A stretch of 42,279 nucleotides of DNA from Jimgerdemannia flammicorona. Lineage: Eukaryota. The DNA lies in contig RBNJ01000093.1 of the NCBI GenBank assembly GCA_003990765.1, positions 1-42,279 on the forward strand. Direction: 5' to 3'. The notes beneath the pieces were generated by a model that made no database searches, was not told the DNA's origin, and saw nothing but the letters and a program-made list of their open reading frames with translations. Shown piece after piece: positions 909 to 30,237 of the stretch; position 1 is the first letter of the stretch; each line of letters starts with the position of its first letter. The translations under genes and the position numbers were made by a program.

Positions 909-916
909 TATTTATA
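909..916 (-). promoter_or_regulatory. TATA box (TATAAATA) of LTR-A; AATAAA at 788-793
   Basis: Same motif at the equivalent position in all three LTR-A copies (909-916, 9277-9284, 18366-18373), downstream of the U3 ORF. Confidence 0.6.
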
Positions 917-1105: not shown

Positions 1106-2204
1106 TTAGGTACTATCTGGGTAGTCCTCGATGACATCACCATCAATTGCATCATCTCTGATAAAGTAGTCGTCTAGGAATAATGGTTCGCAGATTACTT
1201 CTCCTTGTTCACTGAGATAATAATACATTGGAACTTCGTCTCTGTCCCACAGAATAGCACCATCTGTCTCGTATGCTGGATAAGGTGTTGGTGGGTGAAG
1301 GAGGGGTACATTGTTTTCACTTTCATCGGATTCACTGTCTGCATACCTTCTGTAGGTTACAGCACTATGAGTTGCAGGATTGTAGTAAGCTGGCGGCTGT
1401 GGTTCATGTCACTCGTACTCAGGTGGTGGAGTGGTTGGTTCAGTCTCGAGGGTTGTCTGGAGGTACAGGTTATGTTCTCTGGTCTCTTCATTATAGTTGA
1501 AGTAATTGGGAGTGAATGCTGATTAGTATTCGTACCAGTGGTCATTGTCCCAATAAGTCTCATATGCAGTTATGAATTGTTGTAAGTTCATCGGCAAAGT
1601 TGGCAGAGTGATCAGGGTTGGCAGAGATCCTTAGCTAGAGGTCATGTCGGCGTCAGAGGGATCATTGTCTTCTGCTTCGTCTTCATCGAAGTGGATTATA
1701 TTGTAGATGTCCTTCATGATGTATCCAACTTGGGGCATTTGCAGGATATGATCATTAGGGTGGGGGAAGGTTCTATCTGTGGTTTCGACATACTTGAGGT
1801 ACTTGTAGTTGAGTTCTTATATCATATCATCGATTTGGCCATAGAACAGAGTAGCAACCATTTTGCTAGTAGTAACTCAGAGGTGGGAGAATAATTGTGC
1901 TGTACTCATAGAAGAGTTCTCAATGTTTGCAGGCAATGAGCTTCTGGTGTTGAGACATCTGGGTAATGTCTGTATCATGGTGGTGTTCGACCATGTCTTC
2001 CAGGAGGTGGCCAATCTGGTAGTAGCTTGAGATTTGTCTGATTCAGTAGACCTCGCTAAGTATGTTCAGAGCATTCCATCAGGCTTCCATGAAGTAGGGG
2101 GGTGCCAGGCTATGGATATTCATGAGGGGCAGAGGGAGTGTGGCTCGGTTGACGATGGCATTCCAAATATCAGTGCAGATGTGGGTATAGATCTCAGTGG
2201 TCAT
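1106..2204 (-). pseudogene. U3-encoded ORF of LTR-A (ancestral ~365 aa, MTTEIY...EDYPDST), 3' LTR copy
   Basis: ATG at 2204, TAA at 1106-1108. Broken by TGA 2079-2081, two CAA>TAA stops (~1632, ~1818) and a +1 indel near 1890; the other LTR copy is open at the TAA and indel sites. Confidence 0.8.
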
Positions 2205-2492
2205 GTTTGTGTGTTTAGAAGTTGTAGTTGTTGTTTGTTTTGGTTCTCTGATTTGATGCATCTCAGTGCTCAGTATATATGCATTTGGTCCTGATTGGTA
2301 AGATTCTGTTTGTGTAAATCTTGTATTCTGTGACTTCATATTGACTCAGCTTTGTGCGCTGTGACTTCGGTTTGACTCAGCTTCATGATCAAGCAGGTGA
2401 TTTCCAGATTTGTTCAGAGGTCGCGTGTGATTTCAGTAGCTTGTTCAGAGGGTGATGTGTAATTTCAGTGGCTTGGAGGTTGTCTGCTTACA

Positions 2493-2506
2493 ACTCTCCC
2501 CTTCTT
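2493..2506 (-). other. Polypurine tract of element A
   Basis: AAGAAGGGGAGAGT on the minus strand immediately 5' of the 3' LTR. Confidence 0.9.
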
Positions 2507-2743
2507 AGCTTTCGACGTCCTCATCAGGGCCTTCTAATTTTGTTCAGTGGTACAGGGAGAATAGGCTTGCTTTCAGTTTTGCCATTTCTCCAGAGGGTCA
2601 GTGTTTTTGTCTTGTTTTGCTGAGTTCTTGGTCTGGTTTGTGATAATTATAATGTTCGGGAAGATAATATATAGTGTGTACTGATAGGTGTGGAGTATTT
2701 GGTTCTAGTTGTTCAAGGAATCATATTCCTGAACTAGGTCAGT

Positions 2744-2872
2744 AGCATTCTGGAGATTGGTCTTGGGTTCCCAAGTTGCATCATAGATCGGGTAACCTTT
2801 CTATTTGACAAGGTACTCAAGATGGTTCTTGTTGCCATGTTTGTTGAGGATTTATTCAACTTCATACTCTTC
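2744..2872 (-). pseudogene. Chromodomain at the integrase C-terminus
   Basis: [41 protein letters not shown] in the pol frame. Confidence 0.9.
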
Positions 2873-2959
2873 TTGGTCATTAATAATGACAGGTGCAGGT
2901 GGTTTGGTGGTCCGGTTTGGAAATAGCTCATCATCATTATCATTGTATTGCTTGAGACA

Positions 2960-4010
2960 TTGAACATTAAAGACTGGGTGAATCTTAATGGTATCTGGTA
3001 GCACCAGTTTGTAGGAGGTTGGAGAGACTTATGCGATGACTTCAAATGGTCCAATGAACTTGCTATTCAGCTTTGTAGATGGTCTGTGCTTGAGGTTGTC
3101 AACTCGGTATCCTCTGATGTCTAGTAGGACTTTTTCTCCAATATCAAAAGTTTCTTCTTGGCAGTGTTGGTTAACATACTGTGATTGTTGTTCTTGAGCT
3201 CACAATAAATTCTCAATGGCAATCTGGCTTAAATTGCACATTTAGAGTAAGAATTCTTCAACAGCTTCAACTGTGGAGGGTTCTTCATTAGTTCAGATAA
3301 GTGTCAAAGGAGTGTTTGGATTTTGTCCAGTGTTGGCGAAGAATGGGGTCATTCCAAGAGAGGCTTGCTTGCTATTGTTATAGGCAAACTCGACTGCAGT
3401 GAGGTGTTCATGCCAGTCATCTTATCTGTAGGAAACATAGTTCCTTAGCATTTGTTCCAGAGTTTGGTTCATTCTTTCAGTTTGGCCATCAGTTTCTGGG
3501 TGAAAGGCTGTGGATAGTACAAGTTTTGTTCCAAGGTGTGCATGGAGGGCTTTCTAAAAGTAGTTGGTGAATTTCAGATCTCGGTCACTAATAATGATCT
3601 TAGGAAGACCATGATAGCGGAAGATGTTGTCAAACAAGAGTGTGGCTATGTCTGGTGCTATTGCAGTAGTGGTAGTAGGCACAAAGTGGGCTTGTTTGCT
3701 GAGATAGTCCACAAAGACAACAATTGCATCTTTCCCATTTTTGGTTCGGGGTAGTTGTACAATGAAGTCCATAGAGATTTGTTCCCAATTTGCAGATGGT
3801 ACTGAGATAGAGTGGAGTAAGCCAGGTTTTGCTAGTGTTGAGGACTTGTTTCATTGGCAGGTATCACAGGAAGTAATGTAGGTTTTGAGCTGATCTGCCA
3901 TGCGGGGCCAATAGAAGTTCCAGGAGATAACTTCATAGCATTTGTCAAATCCTAAATGTCCAGCTGTAGGGGCATCATGACATTCGAATAGGATAGTCCT
4001 TCGGAGGTCT
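2960..4010 (-). pseudogene. Integrase (HHCC zinc finger, DDE core, GPY/F region)
   Basis: HDAPTAGHLG...CDTCQ; MDFIVQLPRTKNGKDAIVVFVD...[28 protein letters not shown]. Confidence 0.92.
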
Positions 4011-4214
4011 CGGTTGTTTGGAACATACAGTCTGTCCTTGTAGTAGATAGTATTGTCTCTGAGTTGGTATTGGTTGTACTGGGTATACTTGTTAGCATCA
4101 TCATTGTTCAGGATTTCTCGGAGTGCTTGAGCTTCCTTATCATCAGTATATGCTGTGATAATTTGTTCCATGATGGAGTTTGTAACCAAGGTGAGAGTTT
4201 GGATAATGTCTTCG

Positions 4215-5500
4215 ATTGGTGGTCTGGAGATTGTATCGGCAACAATATTTTCCTTGCCAGGGTGGTACTGGATTTCGTAGTCAAAGTTGGTGAGGACTTT
4301 CATCCATCTGGCTTGCTTTCGGGAGAGGGTAGCCTGTGTCTTGATGTTGACCAATAACTTGTGGTCAGTCAATACAGTGAAGTGTACTCCTTCTAGATAT
4401 GGTCGCCATTTGATCAGAGTGTCTACAATGGCTAGCATTTCCTTTTCGTGAGTTGCATAGTTGATTTCCACATCATTGAACTTGCGGGAGTGATAGGCCA
4501 CAGGGTGTCCTTCTTGTATAAGTACTGCTCCAAGGGCTAGGTCAGAGGCATCAGTGGTAACTTCATATGGTAAGGCAGAATTTGCCGCTTGAAGTACTGG
4601 AGTGGTTATCAGAGCATTTTTCAGTGCTTGGAAGGCGGTATCTTGCTCGGGTCCCCAATTTACAAGATTGTTGAAGTCTTTCTCTTATTTCATGGTCCAG
4701 GGTTATTCTTGTTTCTTGCTGTACTTGGTCATTTGGGTGAGGGTAGTAGCGATTTTAGCAAAGTTGGCAATAAATCACCTATAATAGTTTGCCAATCCCA
4801 GGAATGACTGGAGGTCTTTCAGCTTCTTAGGTCTGGGCCAATCCTTGATTGCAGAGATTTTGCTGGGGTTCACTTTGATTCTATTCAGAGTGACAATGTG
4901 TCCAAGGAATTGAATTTCTTTCAGAAGAAATTCACACTTGCTGAGTTTTGCAAAGAGTCGGTTTTCTCGAAGTTTCAGTAGTACTAGTTTGAGGTGTTCG
5001 AGATGTTCCTCCAGGGTTTTGCTGAAGACTAGGATGTCGTCAATATAGACAACAATGAATTTGTCTAGGTATGGATGCAGAATGGTATTCATCAGTGTCT
5101 GGAAGGTTGCTGGAGCTTTAGTTAAGCCAAAGGGCATAACCAGGAACTCGAAGTGTCCATAGCAAGTTCAGAAAGCTGTCTTGTAGATGTCTTCTTCTTT
5201 CATGGCAATTTGCCAGTAACCATTTCACAGGTCAAAAGAGCTCATGAATTGTGGGTTGGTGAGCCTATCGAATATTTCATTAATCCTTGGTAGTGGGCAA
5301 CAGTTCTTGATGGTCTGTTCATTGAGATTGTGGTAGTCAATGCATATTTGTAGATCTCCTCCTTTCTTGACAATGAAGAGGACTGGTGCACCATAGAGTG
5401 ATACACTGGGTCTGATAAATCCTTGTTCTAGGAGTTTGTTGATTTCCTTCTTGAGTACATCAATTTCTCTTGGAGACATGTGGTAGATTGACTTGAAGGC
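4215..5500 (-). pseudogene. Reverse transcriptase and RNase H
   Basis: [13 protein letters not shown]...[10 protein letters not shown]...[12 protein letters not shown]; RNase H TTDASD...YATHEKEMLAIV...TDHK. Confidence 0.95.
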
Positions 5501-5799
5501 TGGTTTGGCATCTGGGATAGTCTTGATTGCATGGTCTACTGCTCGTTTGGAAGGTAGGCCTTTCAGGAGCTTCTTTGGGAATATGTCTTGAAATTTCTGG
5601 AGTAGTGGTCTGACATGGCTATCAACTTTGAAAAAATCTTCTTCAGAGTTCTTGGGTTCTCCTTTGGATGGTTGGATGGAGATGGCAAAGAGAGGGCATT
5701 TCTTGGCCAATTTCTTAAGTTGTAGCTTGTTGATGTGGGTGATCTTTGGTCCAGGGTCCCTAGAGTTGAGTGGGTCCTTTTTGTCTTATAGTTTGAAGT

Positions 5800-6150
5800 T
5801 GTGGTGTCCTTTCTTGATGGTCAGAGAATAGTTTATCCAATCAATCATGGGGTTCTCTTGTTTTAACCATGGAGTCCCAAGGATGATTTTATTGTCAGGA
5901 AGTGGTACGATTTGGAGGGTAACATATACTTGGTAGTCACCAATTCGGAAGGGTAGATTGCAGACTTCTTTGCTAATAACATGTGAGGTTCCATCAGCTG
6001 TAGCAACTACTTGAGTTTGCTGTACTGGAGAGGTGAAGACCTTGAGTCTGTTGGCTGTTTCTTCATTGATAAAGTTGTCTGAGGCACCACTGTCTATCAT
6101 AATCTTGACAGGTGCTCTGTTGATAAAAGCCTTAAGGGTGAGCAGTTTGT
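5800..6150 (-). pseudogene. Retroviral-type aspartic protease
   Basis: IMIDSGASDNFI and IILGTPWL motifs. Confidence 0.92.
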
Positions 6151-6365
6151 CTGATCCCATGGTGGTAATTTCAGTTGTTTGAGCTTTCCTTCTGTTGGTT
6201 CTTCTTTGAGCCAGTTCGTTGACACAAGAGAAGCAATTATCAATCATTCGGGAAGAGTACATTCCAATACTATGAGGGCATCAGCCACTTGGTATATATC
6301 CATCTTCTATCTTCTTATAGAATTGTTCTTCTTTGCTCATGGTAGGTTGGGCTGGGGTCTTGTTT

Positions 6366-6772
6366 GATGAGCCAAATCCTTTGGATCCTCAGATGGTGGG
6401 CAGTAGTTCAGAGACTTCCTTGACTGTCAGGGTTGACTCAATTTTTTCGAATAGGATCTGGGTGATGCAGAAGCCAATAGGGATCTTGAAGGATATCCAA
6501 CTGTAGTTTCGAATAAGGACCATAATTTCGCCTGTGTAATCCTCGTCAATGACTCCTCCTTCTACTGAGAGTCCTTTCAATGCTAGGCTGCTGTGACAGC
6601 ATATTCTTCCAACATGTCCTTCAGGGATTTGGATACTGATTCCTGTATAGACTTGTTTGACTTCTCGGTTGGAAACTGTAGCTTCTTCGGCTACATACAG
6701 GTCATATCCAGCTGCTTTTTGACTTCCTTTGATTGGGGCCTTAGCAGTTTGTCTTAACTTGATAAAGTCCAG
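6366..6772 (-). pseudogene. dut: Trimeric dUTPase domain between Gag and protease
   Basis: All five motifs in order: AGYDL, GRICCHSSL, GVIDEDYTGEI, GFCITQILF, (R)GSKGFGSS. Confidence 0.93.
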
Positions 6773-6839
6773 TGTTCTGGTGGTCAGGTTGTTGAGGTGG
6801 TGAAGAGTGGTAACAGTTGCTCGTATTGCTGTTCAGGGT

Positions 6840-7834
6840 TTTCGGTTGGGGCAGATACTGGCCATGTGTCCTGTCTTTCGGTAGAAGCATGCTCCGCTTC
6901 TTCGAAGTTCATTCCTTTTGCCTTCAGTAAGTTTCTTGAAGGTACTGGGCTGGGTGGGTTCAGGATTTCTAGGTGTCCAAGAGGTGGATGTGGAGGGAGC
7001 TTGGGATGCTTCATGCTTGGGTTCTTCTTTCTTGGTCCAAGTCCTTTCCTTGTTGTTAAATTGTCTTCAGGGCAGAATTGGTCCAGCTGTTAGGATTCGC
7101 TTGACCATGGTCTTGATTCTTGCTAGGCACCATTGTTGGTGATCACAACCAACTGGGTGGTCTTGTTCTCGGATTTTTCTAGTAAGCCATTCGGGCAGGG
7201 CATCAAATAAATGGTCTGCTCTTGTACCATTTTGTGCTTCATCATTAGTGATGTATCCTAGGCCAACAGTGTTCAGGAGTGACTCGAGTTTTGTACAGAA
7301 GGTTTTGAATTCTTCTTTGCCATGTACATCAAATTTGAGGTTGCAGAGTTTTACTCAAGATTCAGCAATCATGGTTTCGCTGCAGTATTGAGCAATCATG
7401 GGTTGTTTGAGTCCAGGGGCTGCAGGATGGGCTCCATATCCTGGGGCATTGTTTGCTGCATTCTGGGCAACTACTGCAGGTCGGGTATCCCATGTGAGGG
7501 GTTTTTCGGGAAGGGTTCGCCACCATTCTTCAGCAGGTCCTTGGAAGAATATAACAACTCAGCGGACATAGACTGTAGTGGTAGCAAAGAGTTGTTCCAG
7601 AGTGTGGTCTTGATTGTTTGTCAGAACGTGGTCAGCAACTTGCTCATTGGTCCATTGATTGGCTTCGAAGTTGGTGTCAACTACACTAATGAAGCTTTGG
7701 ACTTCTTGTACAGTACCATTAAAGGTAGGTAGGCTCAGATTTTTGGTAGATTGGGTCTGTTCAGCTAAGACAGTAATGGTTGCTGCCATTATAGCTACTT
7801 GGGCTGTGAGATCAAGAATCTGTTGGTTTGCCAT
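6840..7834 (-). pseudogene. Gag core and zinc knuckle
   Basis: LPTFNGTVQEVQSFI near the N-terminus; GACFY-RKTGHMASICP knuckle at ~6850-6895 that lacks the second Cys codon. Confidence 0.8.
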
Positions 7835-8781
7835 GTTGATTGCTGAAGGCAGTTGGACTGCTGGTAGTGGTGTTACTGGTACTACTTGAGGTACTGGTGC
7901 AGAGTGTGATGGGGTTCTTTGGGTCTGTGTAAGTTGCTGGAGTAGTAGTTGTGGGTCTGGAGTGAGGGCTTGATAGATAACTGTTTGTTGCTGTATAGGT
8001 GTATTCTGTCCTGATGGAGGTACTTCTCCTTTGGTGATATATCTGGGATCGAATTCACTGAGATACTCCTCCTCTTCTTCAGTTTGGTCCCCGTGTAATT
8101 GGGTTTGCTCGGCATCAAAGTAGACAGAATCAGTTGTATATCTGATTTCAGATGGACTTAATTCAAAGTCAAGTTCTGGTTCGGTATTGGTCTCAGATTC
8201 AGGTAGGGTTGTAGCAGGACCTGCTTCAGGTTCGGGGTCAGGTAGTTGATGAAGGGTTTCTCTTACTTCTTCTTTAAGAATATGGTGGGCCTTACTGTTC
8301 TGGAATCGGTAGTATAAGGTGGTCTTGGTCCTGGTGCGGTGAAAGTCAGTAGAGTTGAGCCACTTGGCTACAGAGGCTTGGGCTTTGTGAGGAACTACAA
8401 CTAGAAAGACTGCTGCTGGTTATCCTAGGTCGCTCAGATTTGTGGAGCTGACAAAACTCTTGTTGAGAAGAATAAAGAAGGCTTCAATAAGACCTTCTTC
8501 ATCTTGACTTGCTGAGTGTAGTGCAAGGAGTTTGGTGAATAGGGTTTCACCTATTTGTTGGTTTAACCTGAGTACTTCTTTCTTTGAATGAAGTTTATCC
8601 CACTTGTTGCAGGTGTGGAGGTCAAATTGTTCTTGTATGTCAGGTTCAATTCTCTCCAGATTGTCAGATAGTTCAGGATAAATTCTAGTTCAGAGGTTGG
8701 GCTTTATACCAACTTGTAGGAATTCTCAGAAGGGTTTGTAGCAGGATGAGGAAGCATCTTGAAATAGAATTGGATTGTAAA

Positions 8782-8793
8782 CTGCTACTACCA
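8782..8793 (-). other. Primer binding site (tRNA type, possibly initiator Met)
   Basis: TGGTAGTAGCAG 3 nt inside the 5' LTR; the TGG start is complementary to tRNA CCA. The tRNA identity is inferred. Confidence 0.65.
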
Positions 8794-8796
8794 AGT

Positions 8797-10858
8797 TGTA
8801 AGAGGGTTACTTTTTAGGGTAACTGTTATGTAGTTCTGGAAGAGTTTTTCTGGAAGTTCTGAATATTCTGGAAGACCGTTTTCTTATAGTCAAGATCAAT
8901 TTCATATGGAGTACGTCCTCTATGCTTATTGATTTCAAGATCGGGTTGATGTCTCAACCAAAGTCCTTTTTCAGACTAGTTCTGGATGTTCAGGAGTTTC
9001 CGTATTTCAGGAAGTTCAAGAAACTAAGACCAGCTTAGTTGAATTGGCGTATCGCTGCAGACAATACCCAATTAGAAAATTTCATGATGGGGTTAGGAGT
9101 GGGATCTAACAGGGAGCAGATTTACTTAAGAGTAGTTTGTAGGTTATGGAATAGGTTTATTTGCTATTCATGATATTGCTATACTAGGAGTATTTGTATG
9201 AAGGGGTATTGTGGGGAAGTATTCAGGAATGTTCTTGTGTGTTCGAGTCTAAGATTCTGAGGTCTGGGGGAGGGGGTATTTATACTAGTGAGAGGCTATC
9301 TGGACTATGCTGAATATGGATGTAGCACTAAGTGCTTTGCTGAGTCGGAATATAGTCATGTAGTACAAGTGTGATCTGACATGTCAAGAGATCATCTGAC
9401 TGCTAAGTTAGTTCACAGTCACATCGTACAAGGCTAATCTAACTATACTATGACTGCTAGGCTATTTATGAGTTTAGGCGCTATCTGGATAGTTCTCGAT
9501 GATATCACCATTAATTGCATTATCTCTGATGAAGTAGTTGTCTAGAAATAATGGTTCGCGGATTACTTCTCCTTGTTCGCTGAGATAATAATACATTGGA
9601 ACTTCATCTCTATTCCACAGGATAGACTATCTGTCTCGTATGCTGGATAAGATGTTGGTGAGTGAAGGAGGGGTGCATCATTTTCACTTTCATTGGATTC
9701 ACTGTCTGCATACCTTCTGTAGGTTACAGCACTATGAGTTGCAGGATTGTAGTAAGCTGGCGGCTGTGGTTCATATCGCTCGTACTCAGGTGGTAGAGTG
9801 GTTGGTTCAGTCTCGAGGGTTGTCTGGAGGTACAGGTTGTGTTCTCTGGTCTCTTCATTGTAGTTGAAGTAATCGGGAGTGAATGCTGGTTGGTATTCGT
9901 ACCAGTAGTCATTGTTCCAATAAGTCTCGTATGCAGTTATAAATTGTTGTAAGTTCATTGGCAAAGTTGGCAGAGTGATCAGGGTTGACAGAGATCCTTG
10001 GCTAGAGGTCATGTTGGTGTCAGAGGGATCATTGTCTTCTGCTTTGTCTTCATCGAAGTGGATTATATCATAGATATCCTTCATGGTGTATCCAACTTGG
10101 GGCATTTGTAGGATATAATCATTGGGGTGTGGGAAGGTTCTGTCTGTGGTTTCGACATACTTGAGATACTTGTGGTTGAGTTCTTGTATCATGTCATCGA
10201 TTTGGCCATAGGACAGAGTAGCAACTATTTCACTGATAGTAACTTGGAGGTGGGAAATAAAGGTACTGTACTTGTAGAAGAGTTCTCGATGTTTGCGGGC
10301 GATGAGCTTCTGGTGTTGAGACATCTGGATAATGTCTGTATTATGGTGGTATTCGACCATGTCTTCCAGGAGGTGGCTGATCTGGTAGTAGCTTAAGATT
10401 TGTCCAATTCGGTGGGCCTCACTAAGTATGTTCAGAGCATTCCATCAGGCTTCCACGAAGTAGGGGGGTGCCAGGCTATGGATATTCATGAGGGGCAGAG
10501 GGGGTGTGGCTCGGTTGATGATGGTATTCCAAATGTCAGCACGGATGCAGATATAGATCTCGGTGGTCATGTTTGTGTATTTGGAAGTTGTGGTTGTTGT
10601 TTGTTTTGGTTCTCTGATTTGACACATCTTGGTGCTCGGTATATATGCATTTGGTCCTAATTGGTAAGGTTCCGTTTGTGTAAATCTTGTATTCTATGAC
10701 TTCGTATTGACTCAGCTTTGTGCGCTGTGACTTCAGTTTGACTCAGCTTCGTGATCAAGCAGGTGATTTCCAGATTTGTTCAGAGGTCGTGTGTGATTTC
10801 AGTGGCTTGTTCAGAGGGTAACATGTAATTTCAGTGGCTTGGAGGTTGTCTGCTTACA
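8797..10858 (-). repeat. 5' LTR of element A (2062 bp)
   Basis: Direct repeat of 429-2492; adjacent to the PBS and the TSD. Confidence 0.95.
9474..10570 (-). pseudogene. U3-encoded ORF of LTR-A, 5' LTR copy (best preserved; includes the 265-aa track ORF)
   Basis: ATG 10570 is in frame with 9563-10360. Lesions are TGA 10445-10447 and a 1-bp deletion near 9625; the true stop is TAA 9474-9476. Confidence 0.82.
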
Positions 10859-10870
10859 GAGAAAGTACAT

Positions 10871-11281
10871 TTGATGGTTCAGAAACTATATTCTGATATC
10901 ATTATATTAGAAGCAAAAATCTCAGAAGTAATTAAGTTGAACCTAGTAGCTATTTGAAATATAATAATCCTTACAGAATAGTAATAACTTATAGCCATTG
11001 AACTAGCCATACAGATATCTAAAGAGTATTATAGAAAAATTATATCATGATCAGATCTTAGTACTAAACATTACATTGATCTAAATATAGGAGTAATAGA
11101 TCTGGACTATTATAGAGAAATCAAAGCACTTTTGATTAACAATAGTACACAATCTTTTGAAATCAAGAAGTAAGACTGGGTTGTACAACTAATTCTAGAA
11201 TAAGCCAAAGTACTGACAATTAAGAAAATTACAAATCTAGAAGAATCTGTTTGAGATACTGAAGAATCTAGAAGTACTAGA
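10871..11281 (+). pseudogene. dut: Heavily mutated dUTPase of the host Gypsy element
   Basis: ...IELAIQISKEYYRKIIS*SDL...NIGVIDLDYYREIKALLINN...DWVVQLILE...V*DTEESRSTR reverts largely by transitions to GYYGKIAPRSGL, GVIDPDYRGEI, DRVAQLIL and a motif-V-like RGTGGxGSTG. Confidence 0.8.
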
Positions 11282-11329
11282 AGTATAAGCCATAAGGAGA
11301 ATATTAGTACCATCAATACTAGTCTACTA

Positions 11330-13490: not shown

Positions 13491-13549
13491 ATACTCTAAT
13501 ATCTCTATATAGATACATATGTATATATATCTTTCTACAGTCTAGATAG

Positions 13550-14377: not shown

Positions 14378-14690
14378 TATAAGCACACAATCTCCAAGCC
14401 ACCAAAATCATACATCACCCTCAGAAATCATATATAAGATTATAAAGCTGAGTCAACTTGAAGTCATAGAATATAAAAATTACACAAATAGAATCTTATC
14501 AATCAGGATCAAAAGTATATATACTGAAAACACTAGTATATTAAAATGGAGAACTATAACAAACCAAAACAAATAACTGCAACTCTTGAATATATATTGT
14601 GACATACACAATTGATAATGGAGTACCAGTGACTGCTAAGATCAGACGACATAATGGCGTGACAATCAAATAGACAGCCTGACCCATTAG

Positions 14691-15791
14691 GTGATCATCC
14701 CAAAAGAAGACAAGATGATCCGAGCCAAAATGAAGACCACGTTATTTAAGAAACCATACTCCACCTCAAGGATCGGCACCAAAGAACCAAGTACCCATTA
14801 CACAATGCCTCCCATTCACCAAACCAACCAGACCTCCCACCACTCTACCCCTTTGCCTGGCCCAAAAAACCTGATCTTTGAAGCTATCAAGAAGGCTATC
14901 TGGTGCCCAGATACCTCCGAACACTTGAACTTCTACACTGAGGACCTTGGACACTTTATCAACTACTGGTATTTAATGACCCAACAGCTCAAAGACACTA
15001 CCAAACGAATGACCCTCTGGCATGACTATGAAATTGGACACCGCCTTCGCAATGAGACTTAAGAAGGCGACCAGGAAGACCTCATTGCCAAAATGTTAAC
15101 CACCAGCCGGCTAATCAAGAGAGCCCTCTGTATCCATCAAATCTTCCGCCATATTCCCTGGGCTATAGCACACTTGCAAGGAGTAACAGCTGGCAGCCTC
15201 TCTCGCCTTTCAACTGAAGATGCTGACTAGATAGAATCTGAAGTAGCCAATGCTATTGGCAGCAACTGCATCGCCGTAGGAAGCCAACAAACCGAACCTA
15301 CTCAGCCAGGTTTCCACACCACCCCACTCCGAGACAACCATCAAGGTCACCTAATGAGTCTTATGGAGATATTTGAAGGACCGCCCATCACTATAGAGGT
15401 ACCTGTGGGAGCTACCCCAACCACCCACTACTCTGTCAGCCACAATTCACACCTCATTATTTGGGAACCGAATCAAGAAGAAGCCCAAGAAGTTCCTGTC
15501 TTTGAAGAGGAGACCCAAGAACTCCAAGACCCTGCCTCTGAAGAAACCCCCTCTGACACTGAAACTGACGAGTCTTCAGAAGAAGAAGAGGAGCAACAGA
15601 GAGTCTACCAGTCCTCTGTCTGCATTCAAGCTGTTCAAGGGTTGGAGAATGTTGTTGAAGATGACTGGCCACTTTTCTACCCCCTCACCTCTTGGCCGGC
15701 ACTTCCCCCCTTTGAGGAGAGATATGATGAAGAAGAAATCACAACCCAGCAAGATTTGCCTGCCACGGACGAAGGGTACTATTTCCTCTAG
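14691..15791 (+). pseudogene. U3-encoded ORF of LTR-B (~330-365 aa; likely ATG at 14715 or 14805)
   Basis: Track ORFs 14691-15062 and 15354-15791 are in frame; only TAA 15060-15062 and TAG 15228-15230 interrupt them; acidic C-terminus. Confidence 0.82.
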
Positions 15792-15842
15792 AGTACCGCC
15801 CATCAGCCGTGAGAACTCAGCTTTTGTCAGCAAGTCTGTTTC

Positions 15843-16115
15843 CAGCGTTGCTACCCAGCACAACCGTTTTCAGCATTGCTACCCAGTACCACCATTTTCA
15901 GCATTGCTACCCAGTACCACCGTTTTCAGCATTTTGTCAGCAGATCCGAATTCAGCGTTGCCACCCTCCACAACCATTTCTGGCAACAATCATCATATCA
16001 TGTCAGCTCATCCGAATTCAGCGTTGCTACCCAGCACAACCATTTTCAGCGTTGCTATCCAGTGCCGCCATTTTCAGCATTTTGTCAGCAAGTCCGAATC
16101 CAGCGTTGCTATCCC
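15843..16115 (+). repeat. 28-bp tandem array (CAGCGTTGCTACCCAGCACAACCGTTTT) in U3 of LTR-B
   Basis: Units start at 15843, 15871, 15899, 15927 and 16019, 16047, 16075, with variants between. Confidence 0.9.
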
Positions 16116-16241
16116 CTATAACCCAATCCGTAGTAAACAATAGCCTGCACCTCGCATCATGCAAACCAATAGCATAAGTTCGCCACAACGTAGTATACCT
16201 TAGCCTTAGTCGCACCCCCTCTCCCATAGCTAGCAAACTTG

Positions 16242-16273
16242 TATAAATAACCCATATTCTTAGAGTGAATAAA
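16242..16273 (+). promoter_or_regulatory. TATA box (16242-16249) and AATAAA (16268-16273) of LTR-B
   Basis: Motifs seen directly; their position after the U3 repeats fits LTR organisation. Confidence 0.6.
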
Positions 16274-17074
16274 CCTCAGTCAACTGGTTTTGAGAAATAA
16301 CCACTGCCTCTAAGAGACCGGATAAATTCTGAGAACAAGATAACTAGAGCAACGATTGCTCGAGGTTTGAGTTAAAGAATTTTCTCTTGCCACGGAAAGA
16401 AAGAAAACATTACAAGACCGCTGCCACGAAAAGGATTCAAGACCACGGACTGCCTGCCATTCAGTCAGTTTGTGTTTAAAGAAAACGTTATCTGACCGCC
16501 GCCATTCAACTGCCATTCGAGACCCGAGACCCAGTCAACGATTCAAGAATTCGACCACTGTGCATTCAGACCGCCATTTGGACTGCGCATTCGAGATTCA
16601 AGACCCGGAACCCAAGATACCCTGCCAAAGGATACAAGACCGCTGCCAAAGACCTGAATGACCACCAGGAACCTCTCAAGTTAACAAGTCAAGACAGACG
16701 AGCAAGCCATCAACCTCCATTTTCTGACCTACTGTGCCATGGACTGCTTTAATTGACCGCATAAAGAGCAAGACCGTCAAGACCATCGCCACATAAATTC
16801 AAGTTTGCCATCAAGTTAATCACCGCCAGGAAACTTAGCCAGCATAATTGCCGCCCTTATCCACTAAACAATTGAGCCATCGATGTCCTGAGCCACTATC
16901 GTTGAATGAACTCCTGCTATTATTACCGCACGAATTGAACGACCTGTCACATGACCAACAACCCGTAACCATCGCGAACGCACTCACATCCATCGCGCGC
17001 TTCACCAAGTGGCACACATTGAGCCATGCAGTCGAAGTTCATTATATACAAATTGAATGCCACAATATATAAAC

Positions 17075-18176
17075 ATAACCATTGAGATCTATAACTATAT
17101 TTATACTGATATTTAGAATATCATTGTCAACTGAGCCATACCTCCTCTACCCCTCATGAATATCCATAGTCTGGCACCTCTTTACTTTATGGAAGCCTGA
17201 TGGAATATTCTAAATATGCTCAGTAAAGCTCACCAAATCAGACAAATCTCAAGCTACTATCAGATTAATCATCTCTTAGAAGATATGATTGAACACCACT
17301 ATAATATAGATATTACCCAGATGTCTCAACATCAGAAACTCATTGCCTGTAAATACTGAGAACTCTTTTATAAGTATAGTATCTTTATTCTCTGCCTCCA
17401 AGTCACTATTACTAAAATGGTTACCACTCTGTCCTATGGCCAAATTGACAATATATATAATATAAGAATTCAACCACAAGTATATCAAGTATGTTCAAAT
17501 CACAGACAGATCCTTTTTCCATCCTGATAACTATATTCTGCAAATGCCCTAAGTCAGATATACTATGAAGGATATCTATGATATAATTCAGTTTGACAAT
17601 GATGAAGCAGAAGACAATAATCTCTCTGATACCAATATAACCTCTAGCCAAAGATCTCTACCAACTCTGATCACCCTGCTAACCTTACTGATAAACTTAT
17701 AGTAGTTTATAACTATCTATGAGACCTATTGGAATAATGATCACTAGCATGAGTACCAATCTGTATTTATACCTAATTACTTCAACTATAATGAAAATAC
17801 CAGAGAATATAATCTGTATCTCTAGACAACTCTTGAGATTGAACTGATAACTCCATCTTTTGAGTATAAATAAAACAAACTATAGCTACTAGCTTACTAC
17901 AACCCTATAACTCATAGTGCTATTACTTATAGAAGATATACAGATAGTGAATCTGATGAAAGTGAAGATGATATATCTCTCCTTCACCCACTAATACCCT
18001 ATCCAGCATATAAGACAGATGATACTATCTTATAGAATAATAATATAGTTCTAATATACTACTATATAAATAAACAAGGAGATATCATCCAAGAACCACT
18101 CTTTCTAGACAACTACTTCATCAGAGATAATATCATCAATGGTGACCTCATTGAAGAATACCCAAATAGTATCTAA
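17075..18176 (+). pseudogene. U3 ORF of the solo LTR-A copy, heavily mutated
   Basis: Colinear with 1106-2204 and 9474-10570; ATG>ATA at 17075, TAA 18174-18176. Confidence 0.78.
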
Positions 18177-18847
18177 ATCTATAGATGACTTAGTAGTTAT
18201 TAGTATAGTTAGATTAGCCTTAATGATATAACTGCATATTGACTCAGCAGTCAGATGATCTCTTAATATGTCAGTTTACACTTATACTATATGACAGTAT
18301 TCTGACTTAGCAAAATACTAAGTACTATATCTATATTTAGTATAATCTAGATAGCTCCTTATTAGTATAAATACCCACTTCTCCAAATCTCAGAAACTTA
18401 GATAAAAATACAGACAAAAATAACTTAAGAACACTTCCACACATACAATATCTCTTCATAAACTACTCCTAGTATAGTAATATTATAAATAGTGAATAAA
18501 TCTATTTAATAATCTACAAACTACTCTTAAGTAAATCCACACCCTATTAGGTCTCACTTCTAACTAAGTTACAAAATTTCCTAATTGGGTATTGTCTACA
18601 GTAATATATCAATTCAACTAAGCTGGTCTTAGTTTCTTAAACTTCTAAATTCTGAATATTCAGAACTAGTCCAAAAAAGGACTTTGGTTGAGATATCAAT
18701 CTAATCTTAAAATTAATGAGTATAGAGAATATATTCTATATGAAATTGATCTTGATCTTAAGAAAACAGTCTTTCAGAATATCCAGAACTTCTAGAAAAC
18801 TCTTTCAGAACTATATAATAGTACTCTAACAAAGTAACCCTCTTATA

Positions 18848-21670: not shown

Positions 21671-21799
21671 TATGACATTATGTAGGTTTTCTTTTGATCC
21701 AGAAAGATCAATCTCTCATCTAGCCCACTAGTCCTTATCTTTTTTTCTTTTTTTTTTATAGTCACAAGGACTCTTACTTTATTACTAAACTATCTATGA

Positions 21800-24700: not shown

Positions 24701-25470
24701 AGAGACCTCTCCTAGCAAGGAGGTATTCAGTCACTAATGTCCAGGTTCCTCTCTACTTTCCCCAAAACACCCCTCTTCTAGAAGACCCCAGTAATCTGAT
24801 TACAGACACCAAACAGTTTCTAAAGTTCTCTAGATATCAACTCTCAAGCAATCAGCAGTTAATATCCAGTCAATCCTTAAGCCCAGCCCTACCACCCAAT
24901 AGGTAAAGATCCTACAATCCCTTCATCTAAGTCTCCTAATATCCACTAAGGAGCTCAAATATTTGACTTCCTTCCAGACTTTCATACCACTACTTCTACT
25001 TACTATCTCTTTTTCCCTATTAGTTCTGTCTATCTTCCATCATATATTATGTTAAAGTTCCCCTCTAGGCAATCAATTCCTGCCTCCACCAATGCTCCAG
25101 ACTCTTGTAGCCATTGAATCCATTCTACTCTCTCCCTCCTCTCAGCCAGACAATAATATGATCCAACCATCAAGAGCCTTTAGCCTGGTCTCTTCCAGAC
25201 TCCTGACACTATCCTGCTCCTCCAATGTTCAATATCTTCAATATTCCCCTTACTCTTCCTAATTAGAATGTCCATACATCGTCACCAAATAACCACATCA
25301 CCTCATTTCTTCATCTAGTCCAGAGTATCCAAGTCTTCATCACACCCAATATTCTATAGTAGAAACAAATCTACTTCTATCCCCTTCAGCTATCTAAAGA
25401 TATTTTGCTACCTCATCATACCTCATAGCCTATTGATATTCAAAGATAAGATATTAGTTATACTATTTAT
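21800..25470 (-). pseudogene. LINE ORF2: apurinic endonuclease and reverse transcriptase
   Basis: LSLNIN ~25445, G(D)FN ~25060, RIDWIL ~24870, NWRPIILLDIDCKL ~23840, LVFLDQEKAYDRV ~23640, GVLQG(D)PLSPILY ~23465, AFA(DD)M ~23350, YLG ~23160. Confidence 0.9.
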
Positions 25471-25489
25471 ATTGAATAATATTATTTGA

Positions 25490-27400
25490 AGAATAGCTAT
25501 CTACTGTACAATTCTATGCTCACTATATTACTAGTAATATCTAGATTCCTCTCTGCCTTCAGTTTATCTGTCTCTTCTTGCTGAGCCTCCAGTGCCTCTA
25601 AGATCTTCTGACAATCAATACCATCCATTGCTTCTATCTTCATTTGGTACTACTTGCACACTATCTGCCACTTTGCAGCTCTTTCCTCAGATCTCACATA
25701 TATGTAGCTCTATCATTTATAATCACCAGAAGTGCTATCTCCCTATCATCATTTATATAATATACCTCAGCCTCTAGCAATGCTACTATTATCTTATTCC
25801 AGAGTTTTCATAACATCTTCTCACTATGCAGGATTTCACCCCAGTATCTCTTGTTTAATACCTGAAAGTCCTCTCTCTCCAGCTTCTCAGCCACCACATT
25901 CTCAAGTATTTTCCACAGCCATTTCTCCTTGACCTCAGCCTCTACCACTCTCTGAACCACCCCCTTCCCCCCTTCTATCTGTCTACTCTCTGCATTTCTC
26001 CTTGCTGACTCATTCCAATTCTTCTCTAGTATATCTTGCAATTTATCATCTCTTCTAGTCCCATCTGACACCCCATACTAAGGGCACCCCCCCTCTGCCA
26101 TCTCTGCATCCTCCACAACAACACTCAGCCCTGCACCTTCTCTCTCTCCTAGAGTCTCCTCTGGTACTACTCTCTTCTTCTCTGCTCAGATACTCACTCT
26201 TGATCCAGCTTCTTCAGTAGTAGTCCCTCCAGCTGCCCCTCCTTCCAACTTAGCCAATAGATTCTTCTGAATGCACCTCTCCTGTGCTCTCTCTCAGACT
26301 GTCCAATTCAACTGTACCCTCTTGCTATTTACAATCTCTACAACCATCTTAGCCTCAAACTCCTTCCAGACTAATCTCTTCCTCTCTATAGCTCTAGCTA
26401 AATTCTCTAATATCTCTAGCAATTCCTCTTCTTCCTCTAGTATCCCTTTCACTCATAAGATCTTATACTCCACAGGTATCTATTTGAGAACTACCAGCCA
26501 GTCCCTTATCTTCTCTATATTCTCCTTGTCCACCAGCCATACTTTGATATCTATATCTCCTATCCTGAATTCTATACCTTTCTAGACCTGAAACCCAACA
26601 TCTATGATATCTCTATACTCTTTGATGGTCTCTACAATCAACCTCTTGGCCACTTTCTTCAACATTATAGGAATATTCAGTACTGTCAGCTATACTATTT
26701 GGGAATCCCAGTATAAGTACTGGGCCATAGAGATCACTACTCCTCCCACTACTACTCTCTTCTCTATCACCTCCAACAGTATATCTTCTTTCTCAAAGCC
26801 TATCTTCACCTCTTCCAGACTTTTCAAAAACTTCACCAATGCTACTCTCTTCACCTCCTAAACCAGAAGCCTCAGAATCATCCTTGCTGTCACTACTAAG
26901 TCTTAGAAACACAATGTGACTATGAATTCTGATCTCAATTTCTTGAATAATAGTACTGCCACCAGGCCTATTACACCATCTGCCAGATCTCTGGGCCTCA
27001 TATCCACTCTCTGTCTAGATTTAACATTAACTATCACATCTGGATTTTTTTCCAGATTAGCAGTCCTCTTGCCATCAGCAGTCTCACTCCTCCCAGTCAC
27101 TACTCTCTCAGCCCTGCTGCTCTCACTACTATGAGCCACTCTATTAGACCCTGCAGTCCTCACCATCTCCTTGTCTTTTCTCAGCCAACCCTCCAGTCTC
27201 ATTGTTGGATAACCTCTTTTTATCTTGTCTATAAAGCTTATTCTCTTAGTTCTCTACCTCCCAGCACTGCCTTCTCCCCTTCTATATTCTCTAGCCAGCA
27301 AGCCCCTCATACTTCCCCCTAAGTCATGACTTCTCTCCACATACTGCTAGTCAAATATACTAGAACTGCCCTACCCAGCATAGATCTCAGAATACTAATC
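25490..27400 (-). pseudogene. LINE ORF1 (degenerate)
   Basis: Purine-rich coding-like minus strand upstream of the APE domain; homologous to 19567-21670. Boundaries approximate. Confidence 0.55.
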
Positions 27401-27491
27401 AGTTGCCATGTTGCTAGTACCTATTCTCCAAAAATAATATCTTGAGTATTGTCAGAAGTTTGTATAATCTAAATATTAATAGAGAAAGATA

Positions 27492-27990
27492 CCCACTAGC
27501 CCTTATCTCTTCAATTATGGCATATATGTATCTATACTGTCTTATTTCTAATCAACCTGCTATCAATAAAGCTATATTGCTCAACTCTCAATATCTATTG
27601 AGCCACTTAACAATAAGTATCTTAGTGATTTACTTTCTATTTATATCTAGAAGTATAATTGGTCTCCAATTTCTCTAATTCTCTTATCTATTCTTATCTT
27701 TATATAACAAAGCTATCAGACTGAGGTTATGTCCTTTGACTCACTCTTCATATATAAGAACAAAGTTATAAAGTATGGTTATCTCCTACAATATCTCTAG
27801 TATCTCTACTATCTTCTTCCAAAAGTCTCAGGGTAGGTCATTCTCATCAGAAGCTATGCTCAATTTCATAGCCAATAGAATACTCAGAATCTCATTCTCC
27901 TGAATTAGTAGAATTAGATCCTCAAGACTATCAATCTATAGAGAGTACTAATTCTCTAGAGAGTACTTATATCTACACTCTCAGCTTGTT
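27492..27990 (-). pseudogene. RT fragment of an older LINE that served as the insertion target (continues at ~21670-21740)
   Basis: NWRPIILLDIN at ~27640-27675; the frame continues past the TSD as IRTSGLDERLIFLDQKKTY. Confidence 0.75.
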
Positions 27991-28189
27991 AGATTCTCCT
28001 ATATATAAAAGGTAAATATAATAAGCTAAAAATTGTTAAATTTAGACATATTTTTATTAAGTTATTATATTTCTAAAAATAGAATTCAAATTGAAAAATC
28101 TCTAATTTAATTTAATTCAAATGACTCTCAATTCAATTCAATTTAAATTAATTTGATTCATTTGGAAGTATTGGTACCACTACTTTACC

Positions 28190-28716
28190 AACTATTAACC
28201 TAGTCTGTAAGGCTTCCTCCAATGGCTCTATCTCCTCAAACTCTATCTCAACTCTCTCCAATCTCTATAGAAACTTAATTGAAGCCACCCCAGTTATCTT
28301 ATTTACAATCAGATCCAAAACTATTTTAACTGTCACCACTAACTCTCAGAAGTACAAAGTAATAGTAAATTTAGAGATTAACTTCTTAAGTAATAGAGCC
28401 ACTGTCAGATCTATTATACTATTTACCAGATCTATCATTTCTTCTTATCCTACCTACCTAGTCTCTCTATCAATAGTTATATCTGGATTTTTTTCCAGAT
28501 CCTCTATTATATTACTATTAGTAGTCATATCTCTATCTTCAGTAATAGTTCCACAAGTCTCTATACTAGCTTTACCAGCTATCAATCTATCAGCTCTTTT
28601 AGTATTAGCCTTTTTTCTCTCTCTAGACTTACTACTCTTAGTATCTCTAGACTAACTCTCTATCTTCACCTTATTGACAAAACTCATCAGCCTCTATTCT
28701 CTTCTATTTACTATTA
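28190..28716 (-). mobile_element. Third LINE ORF1 fragment
   Basis: Similar to 26850-27250 (for example TCTGGATTTTTTTCCAGAT at ~28483 and ~27040). Confidence 0.6.
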
Positions 28717-30237
28717 TATAGTGGTCACTGAGTCCTTTAAATATATCAGATTCTCTTCAAGGTATATCTCTTAGACTAACTACAAGTTTCTTATAAGCAA
28801 GTTCTTATTAGAGTACCTTTCTAAGGTCTTATAGTTCTCAAACTTCTTATCTTTAAACTGTCTTATTATCTCTTAGATTGCTTGTATGAAATTAAGTATA
28901 AGTGAACTTAACTGACTTTATTTCAAAAGAAATAAGAGAGGTATTTATACAAAATATAATTCAATGATTGCTAAGATATAAAGCTAAATATAAATTCCAA
29001 TAACCAAATAAAATACTGAAACATAGAAAACTTCAGTCATAAGTGTAAATTTGAGTACTTATATAAATAATTGCATAAGTTCAGAATACCAGAAGATTTT
29101 GATAGTATAGGAAAAGGATACCAGAAGATTTTAGTATTATTAAGAACTTAGAGCAGAATGTTCAGAACCATGAAGACTTTATCTTCATTGCTGCCAGAGG
29201 TCAGGATGTCTTCAAAGGAGATGAGATTAGCAAAAATTTTATCTATTTTGCATATATTGCCAATTAGCAAGATAATGTCATTGCTGATAATATCATTATA
29301 AGTAATATTATCTCATTTAGTAGTAGAGAAAGCAAGGAGGTCTAGAGATCTCCAATCTATGAGGTTCTCTTCTACAAAATAAGAGACAAATGTGGGATCT
29401 TAGGAAGGTCTAATCTGGATACTGGTGCCTTAGAATGCTGAGATCAATCCTTGTAGAAATTGATCTAAATTGTTCTGAAGGATGGAATTTCAGAACTTTT
29501 CTACTTCATTACTATTGAGGGTGATAGTGGACTGAGCTTCTGTGATAACTATGGCTTCTAGTGCATTGGTATAACAGATTGATAATTCCTTAAAGTCTGA
29601 GACTCTAGTATACTTTAAGTTAGAGATTGACTACAGTGTATATCTGAAGACCTGATGAATCTTCTTAGCTGTCCTTATTTCACATACATCCATGAGAGTG
29701 GTATTTTGTATCTCTTGAAGACTGACCTGAGGGAATTTCTGATAGAGAAGGTTTCCTATTTCATATTCCTGTCATATTTAGAGGTATTTGGTAGCAATAG
29801 TAATCTTTGTTTTCATTTTATAGTAGTAGAGAATATAATGATAAGGGTCATCAGTACCCAGGTTAAGGCTAGGAGTCCTACTTGTGTGGATCCTCATAGC
29901 TCTTCTGATGTCTTAGAATATCCTTTCCTAGACTGAGAGGCCTTGGTGGTTTCTGGATTTTGAGATTTAGTGAGCAGCAGGTATTTTGTTTATAGTAAGT
30001 CTTTTGAACTATTTCTGTGAGTCTTGTTTGAGTTGCTGCTACTGCAGTTTTTTTATCCTTTTTTTATATTCCTTGAAATTTCTGTCTTATGGTCACAATG
30101 ACTCATAATTAGTCATCATTACTCATCTTGTAGCTTGGGTAAGTTATGCTATATGATCTTCTTATACTCTGATCTGGTGACTTATAAGGAAAGGCTGTCT
30201 CCTGTGATAATATCATTATTCTAAAATCACCATTATA
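28717..30237 (-). repeat. 3' LTR of a third Gypsy family (C), ~1.52 kb
   Basis: Inverted termini TATAGTGGT...ACCATTATA (decayed TG...CA); PPT AGAAGGAAGA at 30238-30247; TATAAATA 28942-28949 and AATAAA 28917-28922 on the minus strand; lies downstream of integrase. Confidence 0.72.
29148..30126 (-). pseudogene. U3-encoded ORF of LTR-C, homologous to the LTR-B and LTR-A ORFs
   Basis: LNLGTDDPYHYILYYYKMKTKITIATKYL*I*QEYEIGNLL...IRTAKKIHQVFRYTL*SISNL aligns without gaps to the LTR-B ORF; several stops and at least one frameshift. Confidence 0.75.

Follow-up and report, generated by a model that had tools for sequence, protein, structure and literature searches.

LTRs of a related, probably fungal, group of Ty3/gypsy retrotransposons appear to carry a genuine accessory protein gene of ~250–400 codons, a reading to which we assign a probability of about 0.75. 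In the window, i.e., the whole 42,279-nucleotide stretch of DNA analyzed, sense ORFs of ~280–365 codons lie inside three LTR-like units, A, B and C, in the 5′ two-thirds of the LTR. A gene copy is present in both LTRs of the full element and in every solo LTR, and all five copies are broken. The initial annotation had described a conserved family without a named domain, encoded in sense orientation within LTRs and 5′ of a canonical TATA box, and our analysis bears this out; the peptides it quoted for A, B and C were recovered in place and in frame.

Element A is a full-length Ty3/gypsy element, in which Pfam domains follow in the order gag, dUTPase, protease, RT, RNase H and integrase, i.e., with the Ty3/gypsy pol order of protease, RT, RNase H and integrase. 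Its LTRs are a proven pair, with 92.8% identity across 2064 nt, TG..CA ends, a polypurine tract and the 5-bp target duplication TTCTC. ORF-A and gag-pol of this element share one strand. Three LTR-A copies had been counted before, and we confirmed the third as a solo LTR, A3, 77–78% identical to the pair. Its 5′ end has evidently been severed from the remainder by insertion of LTR-B. The features of element A and of A3 are as follows.

424..10858, minus strand: element A, full-length Ty3/gypsy, defined by LTR pair, Pfam domains, TG..CA ends, polypurine tract and target duplication
8797..10858, minus strand: A1, 5′ LTR of element A, 2062 bp, defined by LTR pair and ends
9474..10570, minus strand: ORF-A1, ~364 codons, one in-frame TGA and one frameshift near 9627
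9277..9284, minus strand: TATAAATA of LTR A1, at LTR position 1575; AATAAA starts 123 nt later
424..2492, minus strand: A2, 3′ LTR of element A, defined by LTR pair and ends
1109..2204, minus strand: ORF-A2, broken by 8 in-frame stops plus one frameshift near 1894
14378..14596, plus strand: 5′ end of solo LTR A3, blastn match to LTR-A positions 3–266, 77–85% identical
17065..18847, plus strand: rest of solo LTR A3, flanked by the repeat CTTCC / CTTCT
17075..18176, plus strand: ORF-A3, heavily decayed, start now ATA, many stops and one frameshift

LTR-B is, by its boundaries, a solo unit nested inside A3. It sits in an ATATA repeat at the target site, has a GC content of 47–49% and, being solo, lacks a partner LTR; no internal region linked to B was found in the window. 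B had previously been taken as the LTR of a neighboring element with an RT at 11776–13470. This assignment had to be abandoned, because the 5′ end of A3 (14378–14596) intervenes and B is a solo insertion in A3. The earlier claim that the gene also resides in solo LTRs is substantiated by both the B unit and A3.

14597..17064, plus strand: LTR-B, solo unit of ~2467 bp with ends TGTGACA...GCCACA
14743..14750, plus strand: TATA-like box TATTTAAG, 62 nt 5′ of the ORF-B start codon
14805..15791, plus strand: ORF-B, 328 codons, in-frame TAA at 15060 and TAG at 15228
15828..16123, plus strand: tandem repeats of ~28 bp (family D11), between the ORF-B stop and TATAAATA
16242..16249, plus strand: TATAAATA of LTR-B; AATAAA starts 26 nt later

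For element C, the initial annotation had probably placed the body at ~20000–28700 on the minus strand. We find the body on the other side of the LTR, where an integrase lies at 31149–31589. Both integrase matches are weak, at E 5.7e-5 and 2.3e-4, and fail to reach the Pfam cut-off. The distance from integrase start to LTR is ~1490 nt in C compared with ~1520 nt in element A, and ORF-C is on the integrase's strand. From this geometry, which is like that of element A, we regard LTR-C as the 3′ LTR downstream of the integrase. The ~20000–28700 region contains, on the minus strand, a reverse transcriptase without adjoining protease, RNase H or integrase and was read as a LINE-like element. The far end of LTR-C may have been cut by an element of this kind. 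No second copy of LTR-C or ORF-C was found in the window, and C is thus represented by one LTR. A search for a family ORF at 18848–21200 was negative, and low-stringency tblastn of the element A proteins against 18854–31500 yielded noise only.

28715..30097, minus strand: LTR-C, the 3′ LTR of element C; its sequence begins with TGTGACC at 30097, and the end at 28715 is tentative
30061..30068, minus strand: TATAAAAA, 84 nt 5′ of the ORF-C start
29148..29984, minus strand: ORF-C, 278 codons, start now ATA, 10 in-frame stops, no frameshift
28942..28949, minus strand: TATAAATA of LTR-C; AATAAA starts 27 nt later
31149..31589, minus strand: integrase of element C, with H2C2 zinc domain and rve core

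The products of the A, B and C ORFs belong, as judged from sequence comparison, to one protein family. As the initial annotation had noted, B and C have no evident DNA similarity (best blastn E 0.33), yet their proteins align with a Smith-Waterman score of 145 compared with 31.8 ± 4.5 for shuffled sequences (Z=25; none of 2000 shuffles scored as high), and tblastn matches reached 2.3e-12 and 1.5e-8. The proposed alignment of all three proteins thus withstood shuffling for B vs C but failed in pairwise form for A, where 230 of 2000 shuffles reached the score against B and 580 of 2000 that against C, neither being significant. A was too diverged for pairwise tests, and we therefore used profile tests instead, with a profile built from environmental relatives only. 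The N-terminus of A1 from the window scored 15.0 bits (reached by 1 in 5000 shuffles), and that of P0028, an intact A-type relative, 29.2 bits (E 3.3e-11; reached by none of 20,000 shuffles). hhalign aligned A with P 1.1e-4 and 1.8e-4 over 119–134 collinear columns. Membership of A, claimed earlier, is hence established by profiles and not by pairwise comparison. In the six-frame translated window, an HMM from seven environmental proteins recovered both B (3e-80) and C (1.8e-57). The reported YEIG motif of B lies at 15027 and that of C at 29765, and in C the spacing from YEIG to IHQ (29660) is 105 nt as described; for B, the motif script reported only an earlier IHQ at 14814.

Relatives outside the window were sought in a HMMER scan of 1.84 billion representatives, which returned 11 proteins at E<=1e-3. 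Together with their cluster mates and P0028/P0009 these make up ~8 lineages of 12–50% identity, with intact members encoded on environmental contigs, and uninterrupted ORFs of 247–342 aa occur in several of them. Word-indexed protein searches gave one match each, and a scan of metagenome contigs gave one contig of 1535 nt, without a clear LTR boundary. In-frame stops of the window copies fall at Arg, Gln or Trp of the intact relatives: the TGA of ORF-A1 aligns with an Arg in P0028, and the TAA and TAG of ORF-B match a Gln and a Trp, respectively. ORF-C terminates in ...LNILL, as do intact C-type proteins. Identity by codon position was 0.45–0.64 at positions 1 and 2 and 0.32–0.37 at position 3, a contrast that is inflated because the alignment was protein-guided.

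These data bear on whether a selected gene exists at all. In favor of a residual DNA homology of related LTRs, with open frames due to chance, all window copies contain stops, and LTR DNA can persist, as is seen from the 5′ end of A3 compared with LTR-A. However, the B and C proteins match without detectable DNA similarity, open frames are maintained across diverged lineages, and third codon positions are near saturation whereas positions 1 and 2 are retained. We consider this explanation, already disfavored, very improbable. Only slightly less improbable is that a host gene, or a gene of another element, was captured by or inserted into the LTRs and that the link to LTRs is local to this genome. 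Genomic context is established for the five copies in one window and one 1.5-kb contig, and the environmental protein sequences come without context, which leaves some room for such a capture. Against it, three LTR families whose ORF regions have no DNA similarity carry the gene at the same position and with the same motif order, and neither the HMMER scan nor Pfam provided a cellular homologue. We hence keep to an accessory gene of the LTRs themselves.

The protein starts with a conserved N-terminal domain of ~125 aa, predicted helical, with motifs Y/W-x-I-G and A-x-K/R-x-H-x-I/V-F-x-H-x-P. A middle block ending in F-E-G-P-P-I is common to most lineages. The tail is acidic and Pro/Ser/Thr-rich; at its end, an acidic run precedes P-L/M/W and a hydrophobic residue. 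By composition, the tails of A, B and environmental members, with Asp/Glu runs and hydrophobic residues, resemble acidic activation regions. A helical N-terminal domain and acidic tails had both been proposed for the family, and AF2 prediction and composition, respectively, agree with this. The N-domain was predicted by AF2 with pLDDT 86.6 and pTM 0.79, a fold that rests on 19 sequences and on the best of five models spanning pLDDT 86.6 to 51.9; the model of a full-length C-type protein (pLDDT 50.1) was too poor for use. For seven members, Pfam gave no family and one chance-level glycosyltransferase match at E 0.089. A PDB sequence search had no matches at E<=1, and Foldseek found none at E<=0.001 in the PDB (two models) or among viral structures. 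In a wide VIA fold search the best Z was 4.0 and none of 48,161 chains reached Z>=5; ParB-type DNA-binding domains (VirB, SopB) appeared at Z 3.1, within noise. The ESM Atlas gave no usable match, with a best score of 0.88 to unnamed clusters. The earlier statement that no named domain is recognizable is thus upheld by Pfam, PDB sequence and fold searches. As Pfam holds no model for the family, genome annotation misses the gene or labels it a hypothetical protein.

A1, A2, B and C each contain a single TATAAATA, always 3′ of the ORF and with AATAAA starting 26–123 nt later, and the flank of this box is common to A, B and C (g-TATAAATA-a/c-c-c/t). A canonical box followed by AATAAA is the layout of short-R retroviral LTRs. 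Since the ORF lies upstream of this single canonical TATAAATA and of AATAAA, it is most likely located in U3, judged purely from motif positions. A second, TATA-like box occurs upstream of the start codon, at 62 nt in B, 80 nt in the related contig L001 and 84 nt in C, where it is the only such motif in L001, one of three in B and one of six in C. In A, we saw by eye only a TATATA ~75 nt 5′ of the start, unmatched by the pattern. In B, C and L001, the position of the TATA-like box, 62–84 nt ahead of the start codon, suggests that the LTR gene has its own promoter. This box would drive the gene, the poly(A) signal of the LTR itself would terminate the transcript, and each LTR would form a self-contained gene with an mRNA of ~1.1–1.5 kb.

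The same upstream box could instead be the main LTR promoter, in which case the ORF would lie in R/U5 as the first cistron of the genomic RNA, before gag. Its distance from the start codon would suit such an arrangement, as would its position in C, just 30 nt from the LTR start. However, gag would then be >1.7 kb from the cap and behind a long ORF, the commonly flanked TATAAATA with AATAAA soon after it lies 3′ of the ORF in all three units, and tandem repeats separate the ORF from TATAAATA in B. We therefore consider this arrangement rather unlikely compared with a gene in U3.

With regard to function, for which the initial annotation had proposed a transactivator or anti-silencing factor, possibly DNA-binding, we only tentatively suggest a nuclear regulator of the element's own LTR. 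The protein would bind the repeats that separate its stop codon from the main LTR promoter, and its acidic tail would then activate that promoter; such a regulator would resemble foamy-virus Tas with the internal promoter. A different role is about as likely, i.e., that of an RNA export/packaging adaptor (Rev, Rem, CERV-like), an anti-genome-defence factor or an integration targeting/tethering factor. By eye, the Leu/Ile/Phe-rich tail ends of C-type and related proteins (PLILNFLL, DLISF) resemble nuclear export signals, and the elements carry heavy RIP-like mutation; on the other hand, the protein contains no Arg-rich RNA-binding stretch and has no family or fold match, and the evidence is no better than for an activator. 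Taken together with a U3 gene under its own promoter, the LTRs might possibly be self-contained genes, whose protein, with a fold that has no known relative, switches on the main promoter or disarms host genome defence.

The closest layout is that of MMTV sag, likewise a sense ORF of ~300 codons wholly inside the LTR (U3) and upstream of the promoter, so that each of the two LTRs contains it. The Sag protein, made from spliced RNAs of a vertebrate retrovirus, is a superantigen and membrane glycoprotein. Our searches gave no similarity to Sag in sequence or fold, and the LTR protein differs in its probably fungal host, its predicted helical domain with acidic tail and its apparently own TATA box. 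Foamy virus tas/bet and lentiviral nef are also accessory genes at the 3′ end of the element that reach U3. Foamy viruses have an additional internal promoter, and their Tas protein binds DNA and activates transcription by means of an acidic activation domain. In contrast to the LTR gene, tas/bet and nef start in the internal region and merely overlap U3; homology is lacking, and the activator role is here a guess. Pfam holds models of Sag, Nef and Bet, and homology to them was found neither with Pfam for seven members nor among PDB sequences at E<=1.

Accessory ORFs without assigned function in Ty3/gypsy elements are also represented by the additional ORFs of plant LTR retrotransposons and by brtn of Botrytis Boty. 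The plant additional ORFs are known from the internal region. brtn is reportedly antisense, to go by the title of a 2011 report by Zhao et al., whereas the LTR ORFs are in sense and inside the LTR, ORF-A being on the gag-pol strand and ORF-C on that of the integrase. The account of 'crapaud' of Podospora, in the part available to us, describes variable LTRs and no LTR ORF, and the phrases 'within the LTR' and 'in the LTR' are both absent from the text of a review (PMC7264820). We found no fungal LTR-borne ORF in the main texts of the literature searched. With no report found, we regard the LTR-borne gene in fungal retrotransposons as previously undescribed, while the layout itself is known from some retroviruses.

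Complex retroviruses are characterized by genes located within their LTRs, and to our knowledge the LTRs of fungal LTR retrotransposons are thought to be short and non-coding. If LTRs bear a conserved gene, then retrotransposons, too, have given rise to accessory genes, which are probably regulatory. Besides acting as promoters, solo LTRs would have to be considered potential coding units, and the gene would provide access to the way in which these elements regulate their expression or evade repeat-directed mutation. Moreover, the gene is retained in solo LTRs; if the LTRs are indeed self-contained genes, a genome would therefore contain many scattered copies of a regulator made by transposons, and these copies would outlast the elements themselves.

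One long sense frame is present in each of the LTR copies A1 and A2 (5' and 3' LTR of element A), A3 (a third LTR-A copy), B and C. The initial annotation had read these frames as one protein family encoded in the U3 of three Ty3/Gypsy LTR families. Its observation is real, and stronger than it could show; its element assignments required correction.

LTRs and sense frames in the window
424-10858, minus strand: element A, with LTR pair, target duplication and Pfam domains
424-2492 and 8797-10858, minus strand: LTRs of element A, 92.8% identical over 2064 nt
14378-14596 and 17065-18847, plus strand: A3, in two pieces, 77-78% identical to LTR-A
14597-17064, plus strand: LTR-B, 2.47 kb between the A3 halves, TGTGACA...GCCACA, within duplicated ATATA
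From 30097, minus strand: LTR-C, starting TGTGACC, only the start placed
10570 to 9474, minus strand: ORF-A1, a single TGA, a single frameshift (heavier decay in ORF-A2 and ORF-A3)
14805-15791, plus strand: ORF-B, two in-frame stops
29984 to 29148, minus strand: ORF-C, ten in-frame stops, no frameshift, ATA replacing the start codon

B and C had no detectable DNA similarity (best blastn E 0.33). Their proteins aligned with a Smith-Waterman score of 145, compared with 31.8 ± 4.5 in shuffles (0/2000 reached 145), and tblastn gave 2.3e-12. Of the three-way alignment, the B-C part thus withstood shuffling, whereas the pairs A-B (score reached in 230/2000) and A-C (580/2000) did not; the by-eye alignment of A therefore required further support. 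We used an HMM from seven environmental proteins, i.e., with no window sequence, on the six-frame window, which recovered B (3e-80) and C (1.8e-57). The next best match (i-E 0.0028) was the spot in LTR A1 that the initial annotation had singled out. With this HMM the A1 N-terminus scored 15.0 bits and A3 8.1 bits, each reached in 1/5000 shuffles, followed by A2 with 6.8 bits (13/5000) and full-length A1 with 5.4 bits (30/5000). For A, hhalign gave P values of 1.1e-4 (134 collinear columns) and 1.8e-4 (119 collinear columns).

The environmental protein P0028 is an intact A-type N-terminus of 128 aa with 82% identity to the window copy. A profile built from 17 environmental sequences, none of A type, gave it 29.2 bits (E 3.3e-11 as single target), and 0/20,000 shuffles lay above 12.1 bits; as profile evidence, we regard this score as decisive for A's membership. 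Its first residue is the Met predicted beforehand. Moreover, it has Arg at the TGA site of all three window A copies, a column in which nearly all members of the family alignment have Arg. From the profile evidence, P0028 above all, we conclude that A, B and C are members of one protein family.

An intact relative of B is P0003 (325 aa, 77% identity), in a cluster of six. With a profile of the B family and C, a search of 1.84 billion representatives yielded 11 proteins with E≤1e-3, of which 7 had E≤1e-10 and 4 had E≤1e-30. Together with their cluster mates, they comprise an intact C-type (247 aa), types with lengths of 259 and 342 aa, and a further three that are more distant. The source contigs, all environmental, measure 0.66-4.8 kb, and the proteins are nameless or labelled 'hypothetical protein'. 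After ...PPFEERND, B-type C-termini are of two kinds, one in P0003 and P0004 and the other in P0008, P0006 and window B, a difference that may stem from a frameshift or from splicing. On L001, a related environmental contig of 1535 nt with its own family ORF, the motif GTCAGGCGGAAC stands on both sides of the ORF, at 170-200 (upstream) and 1470-1500 (downstream).

Element A has the LTR termini TGTAAG (5') and TTACA (3'), its polypurine tract AAGAAGGGGAGAGT precedes the 3' LTR, and the 5-bp duplication TTCTC is found on both sides. Between the LTRs, the Pfam order is dUTPase, aspartic protease, RVT_1, RNase H and integrase zinc domain. The dUTPase domain (6392-6832, minus strand, E 4.2e-29) lies between the protease and a frame in gag position (7562-8419) that had no Pfam match. 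The first piece of A3 (14378-14596, 219 nt) matches LTR-A positions 3-266 at 77-85% identity, and we read A3 as a solo LTR because it is flanked by CTTCC on one side and CTTCT on the other. LTR-B does not belong to the RT/RNase H element at 11776-13470. It has still 47-49% GC, compared with 27-33% in the surrounding DNA and in old copies, and it lies between the two A3 pieces, which makes it a young solo insertion within A3. An older gypsy element (plus strand) is in pieces at 1-423, 10859-14377 and from 18848 onward, with RT and RNase H at 11776-13470 and an integrase zinc domain near 13411. It received three nested insertions, i.e., full-length A, solo LTR A3 and LTR-B inside A3; its own LTR was not found in the window.

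An integrase (31149-31589) lies about 1490 nt upstream of LTR-C, with Pfam matches that are both below Pfam's own cut-offs (H2C2 zinc domain E 5.7e-5, rve core E 2.3e-4). The equivalent distance in element A is about 1520 nt, and C is therefore a 3' LTR, belonging to a gypsy-type element now decayed. Its far end may be cut by an RT region that lies downstream. This region (about 20000-28700, minus strand) has an RVT_1 match in Pfam (23161-23871, E 4.2e-17) but none nearby to protease, RNase H or integrase, and from its motifs we read it as a LINE-like element. A second RT fragment is near 27580-27836, and plus-strand GC skew goes as far as -0.52. A purine-rich segment is repeated at 28710-28169 (minus), 27094-26500 (minus) and 19803-20353 (plus). 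Satellite-like arrays of about 120-600 bp units occupy 32200-34080, with an inverted copy at 36600-36960; another, at 38150-42279, is partly inverted, and its units of about 690-815 bp contain sub-repeats of 22-23 bp.

The ORFs were said to precede a TATA box, and a single copy of the canonical octamer TATAAATA is indeed found in each of A1, A2, B and the C region, in every case 3' of the ORF (LTR positions 1575, 1577, 1645 and 1149, respectively), in the common flank g-TATAAATA-a/c-c-c/t. The AT-rich A3 has four occurrences. AATAAA starts 123 nt (A1 and A2), 26 nt (B) and 27 nt (C) after the octamer. In LTR-B, tandem repeats of about 28 bp lie between the ORF stop codon and TATAAATA. These repeats are also spanned by an open frame of 248 codons in a different phase (15397-16140, plus strand, repeated ...FQHCYPVPPFSALLPSTT...), which is probably a repeat artefact, not a gene. 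A second TATA-like box stands 5' of the start codon, at 62 nt in B, 84 nt in C and 80 nt in L001 (one of three such motifs in B, one of six in C and the sole one in L001); A has just TATATA, by eye, about 75 nt 5' of its start codon. From this layout we infer two promoters. The upstream promoter would serve the ORF, with its RNA ending at the LTR's own poly(A) signal, and the TATAAATA promoter would serve genomic RNA.

The window is made up of nested retroelements that have decayed almost only via transitions, e.g., about 133 transitions and 4 transversions between A1 and A2. C-to-T decay is preferentially found before A and G; in A3 the share of sites affected is 39% for CpA, 36% for CpG, 29% for CpC and 15% for CpT. 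This pattern looks like repeat-induced point mutation and may point to an ascomycete host. The ORF-B stops fall on Gln and Trp positions of intact relatives, consistent with this C-to-T spectrum. Uninterrupted frames of 247-342 aa are kept across lineages just 12-50% identical. Among B-C, B-L001 and C-L001, identity was 0.45-0.51, 0.53-0.64 and 0.32-0.37 at codon positions 1, 2 and 3, a contrast inflated by protein-guided codon alignments that are significant in their own right. From persistent open frames, codon-position contrast and stop positions, we conclude at the sequence level that the family is maintained by selection and that the window copies are all dead.

The ORFs matched no Pfam family, in line with the initial annotation, which had recognised no named domain; a PDB sequence search gave nothing at E≤1 and the ESM Atlas no usable match. 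The proposed helical N-terminal domain was predicted by AlphaFold2 from 18 aligned sequences as six helices, one of about 40 residues (mean pLDDT 86.6, pTM 0.79; the five models span 86.6 to 51.9). With this model, Foldseek found none at E≤0.001 among PDB and viral models, and VIA, which is independent of Foldseek, reached a top Z of 4.0 over 48,161 chains, none at Z≥5. For the full-length C-type protein, model quality was low (pLDDT 50.1) and the structure search gave no matches. Most lineages have a block ending FEGPPI after the N-domain. In every lineage the tail is acidic, with abundant Pro, Ser and Thr, and terminates in an acidic run, then P-L/M/W and a hydrophobic residue.

MMTV sag is a known sense ORF inside U3. 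The brtn gene of Botrytis Boty elements is reportedly antisense, going by the title of its paper. The open-access literature searched yielded no account of the family, nor of any gene carried in a fungal LTR; among the matches listed on LTR ORFs, most dealt with MMTV and none with such a fungal gene. The phrases 'within the LTR' and 'in the LTR' are absent from the text of a plant additional-ORF review (PMC7264820).

The helical domain, the acidic tail, the site just upstream of the repeats and main promoter and the putative separate promoter are together reminiscent of retroviral transactivators that are served by an internal promoter. On the same data, the protein may equally act in RNA export, in targeting or against genome defence. 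We draw the likeness to a transactivator tentatively, as a possible role of the family rather than a probable one.
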